Shown here piece after piece: positions 50,285-55,034 of a stretch of DNA of 64,000 nt (position 1 is its first letter; every line of letters starts with the position of its first letter). The position numbers and the translations under genes were made by a program. The notes beneath the pieces were generated by a model that ran no database searches, was not told the origin of the DNA, and was given only the letters and a program-made list of their open reading frames with translations. The DNA comes from Escherichia phage 241Ecol014PP. The stretch lies in sequence record OR062943.1. One strand, written 5' to 3'.

Positions 50285-53200
50285 ATGAGCATGTATAGCT
50301 TCGATTTTGAGGCCTCCGGGCTTTTGGAAGACCCAGATCTTTATTACCACTGCGGCCTGTTTAAAGAGCTGAATAAGAACCGTTTTATGCTGTTCCTCCC
50401 TCTAAATGACCGCACACACTACTCCGAGGAGGATATAGAGAAGGCTAAGAACTTCATTCTGGCAAAGAAAACTCTTTATAAAGATTTTGAAGTTCGCATA
50501 GCAGATTTTTCGGAGTTGGAAGGTTGGCTTACAGGCAATTCCGACTGGTCACCAACAGCTTTGAACTGCCATAACTGCTACAGTTATGACTTTATGCTGA
50601 TGGAGAAATTATCCGGTATTCATTTTGATATGTTCCGTGATCCTAAATGCATGGGTACTATCAACGATCACCAGGTTAACCTGTTCGATACGTTGGCGAT
50701 GAGCCGAATCTTGTGGCCTGATCGCCCTTTACCAAAAGGTTGTCCGGACTCTGTATTCAACCCGGTTACTAAGAAAATGCAGCCTGTTGGTGCCCACGGC
50801 CTTATGGCATGGGGCTACGCCCTTGGTAACCAGAAAGTTCAAATTGATGACTGGCGTGATCTTCCGTTGTGGAAGTATGTGGATCGTGTATTCGAGGACG
50901 TTATCATCCAGGAGCTGCTCTGGAAAGAGCTGGTAGCGGAATCAAAAGGTGTATTCTACGGCAAATCTGACATGCAGAACTTTATGTACGATCCTGCCAA
51001 AGAGAAGCCGAAAGGGTTCAAGAAGATCACCTGGAAGAACGCATTACGCCGGGGTATGCTGCAGCACTTCCTGATGGAGCTGCAGGCCCGTCAGGGTGTA
51101 TACTTCGACATAGATGGAGCTATTGCTTTACGTGACCGTTGCGATGCGTGGATGAAAGAGATCGCTGATCGTGTTGAACCTCAACTTCCTTTAAAAGAGT
51201 TGTCAATGTCTCAGCGGCCCAAGTTCCCTGAAAAGCCGTTTAACCAAGATGGGACAATCTCCAATAATGGTTGGAAATGGTTAAAAGATAAGCTTGGCTA
51301 TCCTGTGGACATGAGTGCTTTAGAGTTCAAAGCCCCGCCTAAGCGAGCATTTACCTCCACAGGAGATGTCAGCAAGATGGGGATAAAATGGTGTGAAGAG
51401 ATGGGCTGCAAAGACCCCGATAAGATGGCTGATTTCTTGAGAGGCTATATTAAGGGCACTTCCACACCACACCCTTTACCTAAAGAGCTGATGGATCAGG
51501 CGATAAGTGATCTACAGCAGAAGCGAATGCCGGACTGCAAGATACCTATGAAAATCAGCAATCAGGACGACATTAAGCGATACCTGATCAGTGCTGGTTG
51601 GCTTCCGACAATGTGGAGAACTAAGGATGTAACTAAAGACAGCAAGAAGAAAGCTCTACCTGATGCAGATGTTGATGCACGAGTATATGCATATATGGAC
51701 GAGCTTTTAGAGTCAGAGTATTGTGATCTGATTATCAACTTCTGGAACAAAACTGATGCTAAGTTCCAGACAACCGTGCACAAGTTCCGAAGCTTTCCTA
51801 ACTCCGAAAGGATTAAAAAGGAAGTGTTCGGGAAAATACGTAGAAAAGCCAGAGCACTTATTACTTCTCCGCAGCTGAAAGATACGTTTGGACACCTATG
51901 CCCAAATCTTGAAAAATTGAACGGAGAGATGGCTAAAGATATCGTCTTGTGGTTATCATTGCGAAACCGCAGATCGGTCCTTGATCCAATCAAGGAGGAT
52001 AAGGTTGATACTGGTCTTCTTAATCACCCACGTTTGAAGATTGACCATAAGCTTCCTGCTAAAAGTTCTGGGTTAACAAACACTTCCCGACAGAAACACA
52101 GTATTTGTGCAAACATGCCTAAACCATCTCCTAAAGTGGTTATGGGTAAAGAGATGCGTAGTCTGTGGGGTGTTCCTCCAGGATACTTTGAGATCGGTAT
52201 TGACGGGTCCAACTTAGAGCAGCTTATCGGGGCTTGGGGTGCCTTTGAGTTCGACAACGGCCTGTATTATGATGTTGTAAGTAACGGCGATGCACACTGT
52301 TATTCAGGAGATACACAAATTCTCACGGAGAAAGGGTGGGTGAGGTTTGAAGATCTTGATCCGGGAACACAAGTGTTCCAGTACGATCACAACACCTCGT
52401 CGATGAACCTTGTTACTCCATTAAATTACGTTAAGCGTAGTTATTGTGGGGATATGTATCATTTCCACAACAGCAGTGTGGATTTTATGGTTACAGATCA
52501 ACACAGGATGCTGACCGTGGATCACAGAAGCAATAAATTGTTTGAAGATTTGGCAAAAGACCTGAAAGCAGGTAAAGGGTCTAATTCAGGAAGAAGGTTT
52601 ATCCATGCGGCAGAGTTTTATGGGAATACAACCTTATCTCCTGCCCAGATTAATTTGCTTATTGCTATTCACGATGATGGGCACTTGCATACAAATAAGG
52701 ACGGCAGCATCGTGTGCAGGATTCAGGTCGGGAAGGGCAGAAAAGTTGCAACGCTTTTAGATACTTTTTCTGCTCTAAGCCTTAGTTATGTAGAGCAGAG
52801 CGGGAAAACCACAAAAGGGGGCTTACTGGCGAGAAGGTTCCAATTCCACGTTCCGTCCTGGGTATTTGAGTTTTTGGACAGCAATAAGGATTTCACCTAC
52901 AACCTGATGGACCTTGATAAAGAATCTAAAAACCTGTTTATAGCTTCTTTATCTAACTGGGACGGATGGGTATCTTCCGAAGGTGGAAAAGTTGCCTACT
53001 ACTCTCAGTCCGAGTGCAGGAAGAAATCTGTAGAGGTTGTGTCTGCGCTGGCTACTCAGTGTGGTTTACGGAATAATACGGTGGCGATTCACAAAAAAGG
53101 TCGTTCCGTACAGCACAGAATCACGATTGGTAGCAAACAGAGAGCAGGGTTGCTGACACTATCTAAAGAGTCTGTCGAGGTGAGTGGTTCTTTGGTTTAT

Positions 53201-53677
53201 TGCGTTACCGTCCCTTCTGGAGCAATCATTGTGAGAAGGAATGGTAAAGTGGCAGTGTGCGGTAACTGTAATAACGCCAAAGCTTACTCTTCTGTAGCAG
53301 GCAAGGAGATTTCCCGTAACGATGGTAAGCCTGTCACGTATGGGGTTATGTACGGGGCACAAAAAGATAAAGTTGCAGATATGCTGGATATCTCCCCAGA
53401 GTTGGGGCAAAGGGTGATCGATGCACTTTGGGATGCCAACCCCGGTCTTAAGGGGCGCAAAGAGGATCTGGAGAAATTCTGGGAAGCAACAGGTAAGAAG
53501 TTTATCTACTCTTTTGATGGTCATGCTATCTGGACTCGATCTAAACACTCTTTACTTAATGCATACCAACAAAATGGTGGTGCATCGCTGTGTGACTTAG
53601 TTGGGATACTCATGCACCACCAAATGGTGAAGCGTGGGTGGTACGATGAAGGTGTTCGTCGTATTATTTATTACCAT
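50285..53677 (+). CDS. family A (T7-like) DNA polymerase, exon 1 (contains an in-frame intein)
   Basis: RBS AAGGAGAA; exo motif FDFEASG; motif A region IGIDGSNLEQL; after intein motif B KPVTYGVMYGA; ORF stops at 53683 before motif C, implying an intron. Confidence 0.8.
52298..53266 (+). mobile_element. intein (about 323 aa) with LAGLIDADG-type homing endonuclease domain, inserted between polymerase motifs A and B
   Basis: Begins CYSGDTQIL (block A) with MVTDQHRMLTVDH (block B, TxxH); ends ...VAVCGN followed by +1 Cys (CNNAKAY); internal LLIAIHDDGH and LFIASLSNWDGW motifs; host junction NGDAH/CNNAK parallels T7 NGDIHTKNQ. Confidence 0.7.
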
Positions 53678-53953
53678 AAATAACATTGTGGCTTCATAGA
53701 GTAATCTATGTCGAATAACCTCTTTAACTGCGGGAAGCCTAAACCTTATGGCAAGGTAATCCGCAACGAAGCGCTCAAAAGAGCGAACGCTCAGAGGCCA
53801 TTCCGAAAGGAAGTAGACCAGCAAGTGCGGTCGAAATGGGAGGATTCCTGTGGTTGCTTATCATAGGAATATGAGATGGTCCGATCCTACGTGAAAACGT
53901 ATGGCTATGCACGTAATGGTGCGGGGTAGCTTAACGACCTACCTGAACTATTG
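53678..53953 (+). mobile_element. ORF-less group I intron (276 nt) splitting the DNA polymerase gene just before motif C
   Basis: Exon 1 ends ...YYH (last nt U at 53677), exon 2 begins DEYQIQV at 53954 giving HDE motif C; intron last nt G at 53953; intron GUGG (53688-53691) can pair with exon CCAU (P1 with U.G); in-frame stops inside. Confidence 0.6.
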
Positions 53954-54307
53954 GATGAGTACCAAATTCAAGTCCCTGACACGCCTAAGTATAAGACTGT
54001 GTACACCTTCGACACAATTGAAGAACTGGAAGCATTTAAGGCAGAGCAGGAGGCCAAACTTCATGTGTTTGACGGTCATAAGTACAAAAAGGCACGCAAG
54101 GATGAGAACGGAAACGAAGTGGTTGACAGAGACGGAAACACGGTGTACGATCCTATCCTGAACGATGACGGAAAGCTTGAACTTATCTGGAGCCCTGTGG
54201 GTGAAATGGTGGTGCATTGCTTCTGGCAAGCTTCTAAAATGATGGGCGTCCCGTTCCAGATCACAGGTGAATACTTGTGTGGGGCTAATTGGGGTAGTTG
54301 CCATTGA
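53954..54307 (+). CDS. DNA polymerase exon 2 (motif C to C-terminal His)
   Basis: DEYQIQV...GEYLCGANWGSCH parallels T7 polymerase C-terminus HDEIQV...WAICH from memory. Confidence 0.7.
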   Translation, partial: DEYQIQVPDTPKYKTVYTFDTIEELEAFKAEQEAKLHVFDGHKYKKARKDENGNEVVDRDGNTVYDPILNDDGKLELIWSPVGEMVVHCFWQASKMMGVPFQITGEYLCGANWGSCH

Positions 54308-54327
54308 TCTGATAAGAGATATTTGCT

Positions 54328-54975
54328 ATGGAAGAATGGAGAAAACTGGTTGGCAGGGAGGCCAACTATGAAGTTAGCAGTAAAGGAAGGATTAAAAGGC
54401 TGTCTTACCTGAGGAAGTACAGTAACCAAACAGGTAAAGTTACTTTCAAAGCTGTCCCTGACAGGATTTTAAAAGGTAGCGTAGACAGTAGCGGTTACAT
54501 TCAAGTAAATGTAGATGGAAGATCGGAATTGCTTCACAGGTTAATTGCCGAGACCTTTCTAGAGCCTCCTTCAAAAGAGCTTGTAGAGGAATGTAAGGCA
54601 GCAGGGCTGGACTATGTGCCGATCAATCATAAAGACCATAACCGCCTAAACAATGCTGCTGACAACCTTGAATGGGCCTCGCCTTCAAAAAATGCACAAG
54701 ATGTGGACTACGACTACCATAAAACAAGAGGGGAAAGTTCATACTGTGCAAAACTTAAAGAGCGAGATGTTGACGAAATATTAAAGCTTTCCAAAACAGG
54801 TATGTCACAGCAAGCTATAGCAGATCTTTTCGGTGTTAATCAGATAACCATTTCCAATATCTTGACAGGTAGGAGTTGGGCATGGTACACTGGGATACCT
54901 AAAACCGCAAGGTGTAAAAACAAAAGGGGGAGATCCCCGAAAAGCATGTCTGAGCAAAATTTCTCTGTAAGCTGA
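54328..54975 (+). CDS. free-standing HNH homing endonuclease (NUMOD4-like N-terminus + HNH + C-terminal HTH)
   Basis: 215 aa; EEWRKLVGREANYEVSSKGRIKR; INHKDHNRLNNAADNLEWASPSKN; C-terminal MSQQAIADLFGVNQITISNIL. Confidence 0.75.
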   Translation: MEEWRKLVGREANYEVSSKGRIKRLSYLRKYSNQTGKVTFKAVPDRILKGSVDSSGYIQVNVDGRSELLHRLIAETFLEPPSKELVEECKAAGLDYVPINHKDHNRLNNAADNLEWASPSKNAQDVDYDYHKTRGESSYCAKLKERDVDEILKLSKTGMSQQAIADLFGVNQITISNILTGRSWAWYTGIPKTARCKNKRGRSPKSMSEQNFSVS

Positions 54976-55034
54976 TTGTCACTAATGTAAACTATCAACA
55001 CATGGAAGTGTTGTTGAGCAAAGAGGAGACTTTT

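Follow-up and report, generated by a model that had tools for sequence, protein, structure and literature searches.

A very probable self-splicing, ORF-less group IA2 intron within a Vequintavirus gene for DNA polymerase, with a separate HNH cassette downstream

Group I introns in phage DNA polymerase genes have been described in the podoviruses PhiI and W31, where they lie at 'site 881' (E. coli numbering; PMC3428280). The intron described here is in a 64,000-nt stretch of DNA from Escherichia phage 241Ecol014PP (OR062943.1; referred to as the window), which is a Vequintavirus, that is, an rV5-like coliphage of the Vequintavirinae. It is like the PhiI and W31 introns in site and description: all are of subgroup IA2 with P7.1 and P7.2, and an endonuclease ORF, where present, is in P6a. 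By contrast, the PhiI and W31 introns encode an endonuclease, whereas the window is from a myovirus and its intron is ORF-less. Site 881 in E. coli Pol I numbering is presumably the His/Asp junction of polymerase motif C, and alignment to T7 supports this. Phage T3 reportedly has a free-standing gene 5.3 and no intron, as Bonocora and Shub are said to have described in 2009. In the T3 RefSeq record, the polymerase is indeed one unbroken CDS, and an HNH gene comes next. The initial annotation had compared the window with collaborative homing in T3/T7-like polymerase genes, an attribution that is loose since the endonucleases of PhiI and W31 are inside the intron P6a (PMC3428280).

ORF-less introns with an adjacent free-standing endonuclease gene occur in psbA of cyanophage S-PM2 (F-CphI) and in terL of ICP1 (a T5orf172 gene) (PMC3984707, PMC10448857). 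These systems and T3 gene 5.3/PhiI are like the window in having an endonuclease gene beside an essential gene that hosts an intron. However, the S-PM2, ICP1, and T3/PhiI endonucleases have been shown or argued to cut the intron site, whereas the evidence for the window HNH points to the polymerase 3' end as its probable target. In T4, the free-standing HNH gene mobE is likewise beside a gene with a non-autonomous intron (nrdB), which is mobilised by co-conversion (PMC2790892). By contrast, the recent histories of the window intron and HNH differ, and there is no sign of a link even as loose as this one. The window HNH shares domains and a motif with the I-HmuI family (NUMOD4/HNH_3) but is free-standing rather than intron-encoded. 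Some enzymes of this family cut intron-containing and intron-less alleles alike (PMC3428280).

Closer relatives are found within the Vequintavirinae. In rV5 (NC_011041) and ~18 other Vequintavirus records, including the BASEL phages MaxTheCat and RudolfGeigy, there is an intron at the same site that is 100% identical over 276 nt. According to the rV5 genome paper, the polymerase has 775 aa; this intron is not mentioned there (PMC3606486). The intron boundaries of the BASEL phages were set by comparative genomics (PMC8594841), and the MaxTheCat polymerase is a two-piece joined CDS with exactly 276 nt removed. The rV5-type genomes differ from the window in having no downstream HNH cassette and, except for JEP1-like ones, no intein. 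The second polymerase intron of the Pectobacterium phage CB7 (Certrevirus, Vequintavirinae; HNH CB7_50) is ~75% identical over the ribozyme parts, with the same junction (YYH/DEYQ) and the same guide (ATTGTGG), and has been found to splice in vivo by RT-PCR and Sanger sequencing (PMC7344957). It has a 127-aa HNH ORF between the P4 3' strand and J6/7 (the P6a region), where the window has a 5-bp P6a hairpin. The window intron is ordinary and already recognised, a textbook example of a phage IA2 intron in a polymerase position known to host introns; no publication on the ribozyme anatomy of the rV5-type intron was found in the literature searched.

The polymerase locus of the window has the following features, with the basis for each in parentheses.

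50285-53677, plus strand: family-A DNA polymerase exon 1, last codon CAT (motif C His), with a 323-aa intein (ORF list, weak DNA_pol_A match)
52298-53266, plus strand: intein in exon 1, 323 aa, Cys1 ... GN/Cys+1 (alignment to phita32 polymerase, weak Hint_2 match)
53678-53953, plus strand: ORF-less group I intron assigned to subgroup IA2, 276 nt, from A53678 to terminal G53953 (Rfam, indel, covariation, MFE z-score)
53954-54307, plus strand: DNA polymerase exon 2, 117 aa (DEYQ...GANWGSCH) and stop, the last 13 nt (54295-54307) from the HNH cassette
54295-54972, plus strand: free-standing HNH cassette of 678 nt, inserted at the polymerase stop codon (alignments and junction sequences)
54328-54975, plus strand: HNH homing-endonuclease gene, 215 aa, with NUMOD4, HNH_3, and a C-terminal HTH (Pfam)
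54973-54985, plus strand: native polymerase 3' end remnant TGATTGTCACTAA, displaced by the cassette (identical to the rV5 and JES2013 polymerase ends)

Exon 1 aligned to residues 517-659 of T7 DNA polymerase, and the window polymerase is colinear with those of rV5, phita32, APECc02, and JES2013. In JEP1, exon 1 is likewise 1132 aa.

The initial annotation had proposed a group I intron at 53678-53953. The Rfam family RF00028 matched the proposed intron at 64.7 bits (threshold 50; E 4e-14), the covariance-model match covering the full model (positions 1-253 of 253), and intron homologues scored 57-91 bits. DNA alignment to the intron-less JES2013 allele gave the same boundaries to the base: window 53294-53677 corresponds to 2231-2614 of the JES2013 locus and window 53954-54294 to 2615-2955, leaving 53678-53953 as the indel. 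The 3' end of exon 1 reads ...CGT ATT ATT TAT TAC CAT with U53677 as its last base. Without splicing, the polymerase frame runs on into AAA TAA and stops at 53681-53683. Exon 2 begins GAT GAG TAC CAA at 53954, right after G53953. Joining U53677 to G53954 restores motif C in frame, as had been claimed, and gives a single open frame of 1248 aa with the C-terminus ...GANWGSCH followed by the stop codon. The spliced junction YYH/DEYQ is motif C of the family-A polymerase and YYHDEYQ aligns to WVHDEIQ of T7 (H653-D654-E655), which places the intron between the His and Asp codons. The peptide across the junction is an unbroken 98.9% match to intron-less relatives. The ligated junction of the polymerase mRNA is predicted to be ...UAUUACCAU/GAUGAGUAC....

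The ends of the intron follow the group I rules, as the initial annotation had noted: U53677 ends the 5' exon and forms a U.G wobble in P1, and G53953 ends the intron. Both the wobble and the terminal G are invariant in 8/8 homologues and in all 15 loci examined. The splice context (CCAT/AAA..[AT]TTGTGGC and TG/GATGA) is common to the window and 14/14 related intron-containing loci examined. Vibriophages and an Avunavirus are among the loci that share it. The description of the intron as ORF-less also holds. No ORF inside it reaches 80 aa, the longest one wholly inside being 52 aa (53708-53866) with no Pfam match, and the only other is an out-of-frame ORF that runs into exon 2. The intron thus has no endonuclease of its own for autonomous homing. 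In relatives, P6a contains an HNH ORF (127-181 aa).

The ribozyme elements placed in the intron are as follows.

53684-53691, plus strand: internal guide sequence 5'-CAUUGUGG-3' (sequence and Rfam P1)
53695-53710, plus strand: P2 hairpin (53695-99 with 53706-10), compensatory changes in 3/5 pairs
53719-53843, plus strand: region enclosed by the P3 strands, with P4, P5, P6, P6a, the P7 5' strand, P7.1, GUA, and P7.2
53719-24 with 53838-43, plus strand: P3, 2 compensatory pairs (RNAalifold)
53729-34 with 53760-65, plus strand: P4, 2 compensatory pairs jointly with P5
53737-39 with 53755-57, plus strand: P5, counted jointly with P4
53767-68 with 53788-89, plus strand: P6, 6 compensatory pairs jointly with P6a
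53772-76 with 53781-85, plus strand: P6a, counted jointly with P6; a tight hairpin of 5 bp whose loop is AAAA, without an ORF remnant
53796-53881, plus strand: P7 pseudoknot (53796-800 with 53877-81), 5 pairs, 100% paired in 8 sequences
53801-04 with 53809-12, plus strand: P7.1 with a GAAA loop, without covariation support, the variants not being alignable there
53813-15, plus strand: GUA linker between P7.1 and P7.2, GUAG being invariant in the alignment
53816-19 with 53829-32, plus strand: P7.2, 2 compensatory pairs
53844-52 with 53862-70, plus strand: P8, inside P7, 5 compensatory pairs
53886-53944, plus strand: P9-P9.2 region (pair counts, RNAalifold)
53886-92 with 53897-904, plus strand: P9 with a GAAA loop, 5 compensatory pairs
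53909-12 with 53919-22, plus strand: P9.1, 1 compensatory pair
53925-29 with 53939-44, plus strand: P9.2, 3 compensatory pairs

Covariation was assessed with 8 diverged ORF-less homologues. Among these, 98.3% of pair-cells were paired compared to 34-41% in slid controls, and compensatory changes were seen in 30/68 pairs, including P3 (2) and P7 (1). The observed covariation score was reached by 0/500 shuffles. The change in P7 is C53799-G53878 in the window where others have U-A. This helix should hold the guanosine-binding site, a pair assigned by homology to the Rfam consensus. The initial annotation had suggested that a fold of P1-P9 be modelled, and that failure to find a P3/P7 core would count against an intron. 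All of the helices were placed, and the core of P3-P8 and P4-P6 folds and covaries with its P3/P7 pseudoknot. P7.1 and P7.2 come after the 5' strand of P7 and before the 3' strand of P3 and are joined by GUA, which agrees with the definition of subgroup IA2 (extra P7.1 and P7.2 with G-U-A between them) quoted in PMC3428280. Two RNAalifold consensus helices (columns 155-157/162-164 and 279-283/356-360) were rejected as spurious; they occupy the P7 strands, and the P7 pseudoknot tested well instead. The single-sequence MFE fold of the intron had z = -2.83 and recovered P2, P4-P5, P6a, P7.1, P8, and P9, but missed the long-range P3 and the P7 pseudoknot.

The P1 helix is as initially predicted. 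GUGG at 53688-53691, which starts after 10 nt of intron (intron nt 11-14), pairs with CCAU at the end of exon 1 (53674-53677), including U53677.G53688. The Rfam alignment draws the same pairing, and it is invariant in 8/8 homologues. Exon 2 GAUG (53954-53957) pairs with guide CAUU (53684-53687) over 4 bp as P10, so that the one guide serves both P1 and P10. Exon 2 starts with GAUGA in 15/15 intron-containing alleles and some intron-less alleles have GAC.

These data support the idea that 53678-53953 is a self-splicing, ORF-less group I intron of subgroup IA2 and that the downstream HNH is a separate cassette, and we regard this as very probable. Catalysis by the intron in 241Ecol014PP is what we infer from its sequence. 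Because the identical intron occurs in rV5 and ~18 other viable isolates, the polymerase must be expressed from the intron-containing allele. In the pre-mRNA, the guide would pair with the last four bases of exon 1 to form P1, with U53677.G53688 marking the 5' splice site. The core with its P3/P7 pseudoknot would bind free guanosine, which would attack after U53677. The guide would next pair with exon 2 to form P10, the terminal G53953 would move into the G site, and the exons would be ligated, restoring the frame and bypassing the stop at 53681-83. The intron would be a non-autonomous member of a lineage in which other members at the same site loop an HNH gene out of P6a, and it may persist and move when co-infecting relatives recombine.

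The HNH gene is downstream of the intron as the initial annotation had stated (ORF 54328-54975). The accompanying comparison to collaborative homing is not supported, as the gene is in a separate cassette and the intron mostly occurs without it. This cassette is missing from JES2013, rV5, MaxTheCat, APECc02, and JLBYU08, and the equivalent gap in JEP1 is 54298-54975. Its ends are the same against five relatives and are offset by 3 nt in JEP1. On either side is the polymerase end, repeated imperfectly over 13 nt, the recoded end TAGTTGCCATTGA being supplied by the cassette. Only the window and phita32 have it. Counting the intein in exon 1, the polymerase gene is host to three selfish elements that are independent of one another, the other two being the ORF-less intron and the free-standing HNH cassette.

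In the HNH ORF, NUMOD4 (34.0 bits) and HNH_3 (28.5 bits) were both above the Pfam cut-off. The match to I-HmuI (PDB 1U3E) was weak (E 0.004) with the NHKD..NN..NLEW..KN motif kept. The ORF starts 21 nt past the polymerase stop codon, adjacent to the intron-containing gene as in collaborative homing. A scan for sigma-70 promoters and terminators around the cassette gave 5 compared to 2.8 and 2 compared to 1.8 in shuffled sequence, which is nothing above expectation. No match at 1e-3 was found between the window HNH and either T3 gp5.3 or the gene downstream in phage K470; the equal length of the window HNH and the K470 protein (215 aa) is a coincidence. In five other phages, a homologue with 48-52% identity comes immediately 3' of the polymerase, and in Ro1, VIK251, SPLA5a, and PWH3a-P1 that polymerase is uninterrupted. 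Judging by these homologues and by substitution patterns, the target of the window HNH is most probably the 3' end of the polymerase gene (...GGGGTGATTGTCACTAATG... region) in cassette-less genomes.

Comparisons between genomes bear on whether the intron and the HNH travel together. The intron is present in ~23 records and phita32 is the only other one that also has the HNH, so the two are not jointly inherited. VIK251, which has an HNH homologue, and VLCpiM5a, which does not, show no difference in the interval from -90 to +24 nt of the intron site, and 16/32 mismatches between them are within the final 124 nt of the polymerase (binomial p 1e-11). If the window HNH, like I-HmuI, cuts both types of allele, this identity would be compatible with a target at the intron site. 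Between the window and phita32 there were 1/276 differences in the intron, 8/341 in exon 2, and 18/678 in the cassette, the low divergence of the intron being partly due to purifying selection on the ribozyme. These comparisons speak against the intron and the HNH working as a pair, and at most the cassette may occasionally drag the intron along by co-conversion.

One alternative concerns only the origin of the intron and is compatible with the explanation we prefer. The 276-nt intron could be an APECc02/CB7-type intron that has lost the HNH from P6a, with the free-standing HNH arriving later and being unrelated. ORF-containing and ORF-less versions at the same site share their 5' and 3' ribozyme segments, the genus contains 29 intron-less, 15 ORF-less, and 16 split alleles (n=60 sampled records), and such a model has been proposed for loci of this kind (PMC10448857). 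However, the tight P6a hairpin of the window shows no trace of a former ORF, and the present data give no direction to the change, whether ORF loss or gain. We put this origin at slightly less than an even chance.

A second possibility is that the HNH mobilises the intron in trans. It would cut or nick at the polymerase 3' end and resection would sometimes span the 341 nt between the intron and the left edge of the cassette, co-converting the intron as with T4 MobE and the defunct nrdB intron. This distance is well inside the tracts of up to 2 kb known for T4 co-conversion (PMC2790892), and a target at the 3' end of the polymerase agrees with the Mydovirus mismatch cluster. By contrast, the cluster in VIK251 spans only ~125 nt and does not come closer than ~195 nt to the intron site. 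The intron patch (342 nt identical to rV5) differs in age from exon 2 and the cassette when the window is compared to phita32, and most genomes with the intron are missing the HNH. These points make mobilisation in trans rather unlikely.

Strict collaborative homing is less probable still. Here the intron would split the target site of the HNH, protecting its own genome, and repair would copy the intron and HNH together. The ORF-less intron and the HNH gene are 374 nt apart on the same strand, and the insertion site is that of PhiI and W31, site 881 (PMC3428280). The HNH gene of T3 is 166 nt from the equivalent position, and the vibriophages K470 and L025 also have an ORF-less intron followed by an endonuclease-type or endonuclease-annotated gene. 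The window HNH is also 33% identical to the same-site intronic HNH of APECc02 (E 2e-14, 18-sequence set), but this is no higher than its identity to many unrelated phage HNH_3 genes, and a target shared with the APECc02 enzyme was rejected as a reading of this similarity because it is non-specific. Other evidence is also against strict homing. The HNH accompanies the intron in only one of the ~23 records, its homologues follow uninterrupted polymerases whose intron-site DNA is the same as that of HNH-less relatives, and the substitution cluster adjoins the HNH insertion point rather than the intron site. The unequal divergence of intron and cassette between the window and phita32 also counts against it, and the slot behind the polymerase is filled or empty regardless of the state of the intron. 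We therefore consider strict collaborative homing improbable. It is just as doubtful that the window HNH is, unlike its Mydovirus homologues, pre-adapted to cut intron-less Vequintavirus polymerases at His/Asp. We give almost no credence to the idea that there is no splicing and that the polymerase works as two polypeptides (genes in pieces, like Aeh1 NrdA): rV5 RefSeq annotates two separate polymerase CDSs and there is an in-frame TTG codon at 53951, but no Shine-Dalgarno sequence lies upstream of this codon, the motif C His would be parted from the catalytic Asp-Glu, the RNA contains an entire ribozyme core that covaries and an exact P1/P10 guide, and the CB7 homologue splices (PMC7344957).

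For annotation, the self-splicing intron is of practical value. The rV5 RefSeq entry and several other records split the polymerase into two CDSs and have spurious 'hypothetical' ORFs in the intron, and the 775-aa polymerase of the rV5 paper ends short of motif C's catalytic Asp-Glu; knowing the exact junction corrects this. For the Vequintavirinae more broadly, the intron site and the slot behind the polymerase are polymorphic in nearly every combination. If the HNH cuts at His/Asp, the window and phita32 would be a case of collaborative homing in myoviruses. The subfamily would then hold all of the Bonocora-Shub intermediates for the birth of a mobile intron: the empty site, the free-standing endonuclease with an intron-less polymerase, the ORF-less intron alone, and the intron with an endonuclease in P6a. 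As these phages grow readily on E. coli, collaborative homing and endonuclease turnover could be told apart by simple crosses.

The phage of the window is a Vequintavirus (rV5-like myovirus) and its nearest record is phita32 (97.7%). Exon 1 of the family-A DNA polymerase gene (ORF 50285-53683) reads ...TAT TAC CAT and then AAA TAA, with the stop codon at 53681-53683. Excision of 53678-53953 puts CAT next to GAT GAG TAC CAA and yields a single open frame of 1248 aa ending in GANWGSCH and the stop. The polymerase is uninterrupted in the close relatives JES2013, slur12, and rV5_ev147, and an 88-aa peptide across the junction matched these three in one piece (98.9%). In a DNA alignment to the JES2013 locus (L010), window 53294-53677 corresponded to 2231-2614 and window 53954-54294 to 2615-2955, leaving exactly 53678-53953 as the indel. 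The frame and the indel both bear out the splice joint U53677/G53954 proposed in the initial annotation. The boundary bases and P1 that it had described also hold. The last base of exon 1 is U53677, that of the intervening sequence is G53953, and exon CCAU pairs with GUGG at 53688-53691, U.G wobble included. Directly 5' of GUGG, CAUU at 53684-53687 pairs with GAUG, the first four bases of exon 2, to form P10. Because the two motifs are contiguous, a single guide, 5'-CAUUGUGG-3', aligns both exons.

The spliced protein aligned with residues 517-659 of T7 DNA polymerase, where YYHDEYQ faces WVHDEIQ (H653-D654-E655). The intron therefore separates the motif C His from the catalytic Asp-Glu. The corresponding residues of Pol I are H881-D882-E883, so the window intron would be at 'site 881' of the E. 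coli numbering. PMC3428280 assigns to that site the introns that the T7-like phages PhiI/W31 carry. Across the first codons of exon 2, JES2013 (L010 2615-2627) and the intron-bearing alleles (window 53954-53966) show four consecutive third-codon differences, GAC GAA TAT CAG versus GAT GAG TAC CAA. The first exon 2 codon was GAU, as P10 requires, in 15 of 15 intron-containing alleles, and GAC is the corresponding codon in some intron-less alleles (JES2013, SalP219, and PWH3a-P1).

An Rfam scan of the whole window gave one match above threshold, Intron_gpI at 53668-53903 (64.7 bits with a gathering score of 50; E 4e-14), which covered the entire model and contained P1 as drawn from the sequence. 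Homologues were drawn from GenBank phages and IMG/VR contigs. The junction context CCAT/AAA..[AT]TTGTGGC ... TG/GATGA[AG] occurred in 14 loci plus the window, vibriophages and an Avunavirus among them. Eight ORF-less members (253-329 nt, mean column identity 72%) were aligned with 10-nt exon flanks, and RNAalifold recovered P1, P2, P3, P4, P5, P6/P6a, P7.2, P8, P9, P9.1, and P9.2. With these helices plus the P7 pseudoknot, minus two spurious helices, 98.3% of 543 pair cells were paired in the eight sequences as compared to 34-41% when partners were slid by 1-3 columns. Both-sided changes were found in 30 of 68 pairs, and the covariation score lay above those of all 500 shuffles. A conserved P3/P7 core, whose absence would have told against the initial annotation, can be folded, with two compensatory pairs in P3 (C-G/U-A to U-A/C-G in vibriophages) and one in P7 (C-G in the window versus U-A elsewhere). 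The single-sequence fold was modestly stabler than shuffles (z = -2.83). Two hairpins, P7.1 and P7.2, separate the 5' strand of P7 from the 3' strand of P3, and their GUA linker is invariant. This arrangement is a criterion for subgroup IA2 (quoted in PMC3428280), to which the intron is therefore assigned. Judged from sequence, 53678-53953 is a group I intron.

Same-site introns of 690-850 nt are found in APECc02, GEC_vB_MG, K54_rec1, CB7, and three IMG/VR contigs. Their ribozyme ends and those of the window intron are homologous. An HNH ORF of 127-181 aa is looped out of P6a in these introns, in the interval from the P4 3' strand to J6/7, where the PhiI/W31 endonucleases are also placed (PMC3428280). 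By contrast, the window intron has a 5-bp P6a hairpin at the position where the APECc02/CB7-type introns carry the ORF. In an evenly spaced sample of 60 of the 114 Vequintavirus records, 29 were intron-less, 15 had the short ORF-less intron, and 16 were split with an ORF-containing size, and thus all stages of a homing cycle coexist in the genus. Endonuclease loss or turnover (PMC10448857), with no direction polarised, is a plausible origin of the ORF-less form. The window and rV5 differ at 17/384 and 13/341 positions in the flanking exons and at 0/276 in the intron (Fisher p 9e-5), with an identical patch of 342 nt from 53624 to 53965. This pattern fits a recent intron transfer with a very short co-conversion tract, and selection on the ribozyme contributes too.

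Exon 1 of the window polymerase also contains an intein:
52298-53266, + strand, intein of 323 aa with a weak Hint_2 match
It starts CYSGDTQILT and finishes ...VCGN before Cys+1, with a penultimate Gly rather than the usual His. The polymerases of phita32, rV5, and APECc02 lack it and have the allele DAH/QNNAEAY, with Gln rather than Cys at +1; exon 1 of JEP1 is likewise 1132 aa, consistent with the same intein. A second, upstream polymerase intron occurs in CB7, GEC_vB_MG, K54_rec1, and 18-1-2. It contains an unrelated ORF, about 150 aa long but 133 aa in GEC_vB_MG, which is annotated as an HNH endonuclease in the first three. In CB7 it ends just before an exon starting MYGAQ..., the motif B region as read from the T7 alignment. 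No intron is present at that point in the window, but the intein is located some 27 codons before it.

Copies of the 276-nt sequence with 100% identity occur in rV5 and about 18 further records, and 23 records have it at 97.5% identity or more. RefSeq NC_011041 (rV5) gives the polymerase as two CDSs (gp223 and gp220) with 'hypothetical' ORFs between them, and the rV5 paper presents the polymerase as a protein of 775 aa, with introns in the terminase only (PMC3606486). That 775-aa protein ends before the catalytic Asp-Glu of motif C. The 'hypothetical protein' genes rv5_gp222 and gp221 (rV5 locus L001, 4809-5262) fall within the intron or extend across it, and they are likely to be spurious. 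In the BASEL phage MaxTheCat the polymerase is annotated as a joined two-piece CDS whose span exceeds the length of the JES2013 polymerase by 276 nt; intron boundaries were derived from comparative genomics, according to the BASEL paper (PMC8594841). Certrevirus CB7, of the same subfamily, has a homologous intron with the same YYH/DEYQ junction and the same guide; this intron, with its HNH gene CB7_50, splices as determined by RT-PCR and Sanger sequencing (PMC7344957). Public annotation thus already recognises the interruption, there is experimental validation for a homologue, and neither the class nor the site goes beyond the textbook. This is an ordinary element, and both the earlier observation and its core interpretation are correct. 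At the polymerase locus, about 16 GenBank 'Campylobacter phage' records (MG0656xx; stated host Campylobacter jejuni) have almost the same sequence as E. coli Vequintaviruses, which suggests mislabelled hosts or contaminating coliphages.

An HNH endonuclease gene does lie just downstream of the intron, as first noted:
54328-54975, HNH ORF with NUMOD4, HNH_3, and a C-terminal HTH
54295-54972, HNH cassette, a discrete insertion of 678 nt
The ORF aligns weakly with I-HmuI (PDB 1U3E) and retains the catalytic motif. The cassette is shared with phita32 only (98%) and is absent from JES2013, rV5, MaxTheCat, APECc02, JLBYU08, and also JEP1, where the gap is offset by 3 nt. Its left edge lies 13 nt ahead of the polymerase stop codon. 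It supplies its own recoded end, TAGTTGCCATTGA, and the native end, TGATTGTCACTAA, is kept directly after the HNH stop. These ends (S-C-H-stop and the displaced D-C-H-stop) form a 13-nt imperfect direct repeat at 54295-54307 and 54973-54985. The empty site of JEP1, GGGGTAGTTGTCACTAA, resembles a hybrid of both ends, such as recombination between the repeats might leave. A likeness of the HNH to the same-site intronic HNH of APECc02 (33%) was set aside because many unrelated phage HNH_3 genes score no lower.

The intron is present in about 23 records and the HNH gene in just one of those. HNH homologues (48-52% identity) directly follow an uninterrupted polymerase CDS in Ro1, VIK251, SPLA5a, and vibriophage PWH3a-P1. 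Another follows the polymerase gene of K54_rec1, which has two ORF-bearing introns. Mydovirus VIK251, with the HNH, and its close relative VLCpiM5a, whose slot after the polymerase stop codon is empty, show no differences from -90 to +24 nt of the intron site. Their polymerase genes have 32 mismatches, of which 16 lie within the last 124 nt (VIK251 locus L013, 3351-3474), adjoining the HNH (binomial p 1e-11). This is the pattern that homing usually leaves around a target and its co-conversion tract, here at the polymerase 3' end. The 16-substitution tract has the look of homing co-conversion or of immunity. Between the window and phita32, differences number 1/276 in the intron, 8/341 in exon 2, and 18/678 in the cassette (Fisher p 0.018), and therefore the intron and cassette did not arrive jointly in the latest transfer. 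The slot is a general endonuclease hot spot irrespective of intron state. Its occupants include CB7_48 (HNH_3), a NUMOD4 gene in a vibriophage locus (L025), T3 gene 5.3, and, in K470 and KpS8, a gene of another type that has no Pfam match and is called an HNH endonuclease in K470's record only. The slot is empty in rV5, JEP1, JLBYU08, locus L023, 18-1-2, and VLCpiM5a. Across phages (loci L007, L016, L017, L025, and L026) at least four unrelated small genes occupy it: the window-type NUMOD4/HNH_3/HTH gene, CB7_48, the K470/KpS8 type, and T3 5.3. In SalP219 it holds a 280-aa Gly-rich ORF with no Pfam match.

The account with the most support combines a self-splicing, non-autonomous IA2 intron, which would leave the polymerase mRNA at UAUUACCAU/GAUGAG, with a free-standing HNH cassette that would be an independent element, probably targeting the polymerase 3' end. 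It is possible that the HNH occasionally co-converts the intron by trans-homing, for which T4 MobE and nrdB are a precedent (PMC2790892) and the distance of 341 nt is mechanistically feasible, but the histories of the intron and HNH do not reflect co-conversion. Strict collaborative homing, with the HNH cleaving at the intron site, seems improbable; that part of the initial annotation was an analogy that the comparative data do not favour. A split polymerase that does not splice is very unlikely. The remaining value of this locus lies in annotation repair and in a tractable natural system for the association of introns with homing endonucleases.
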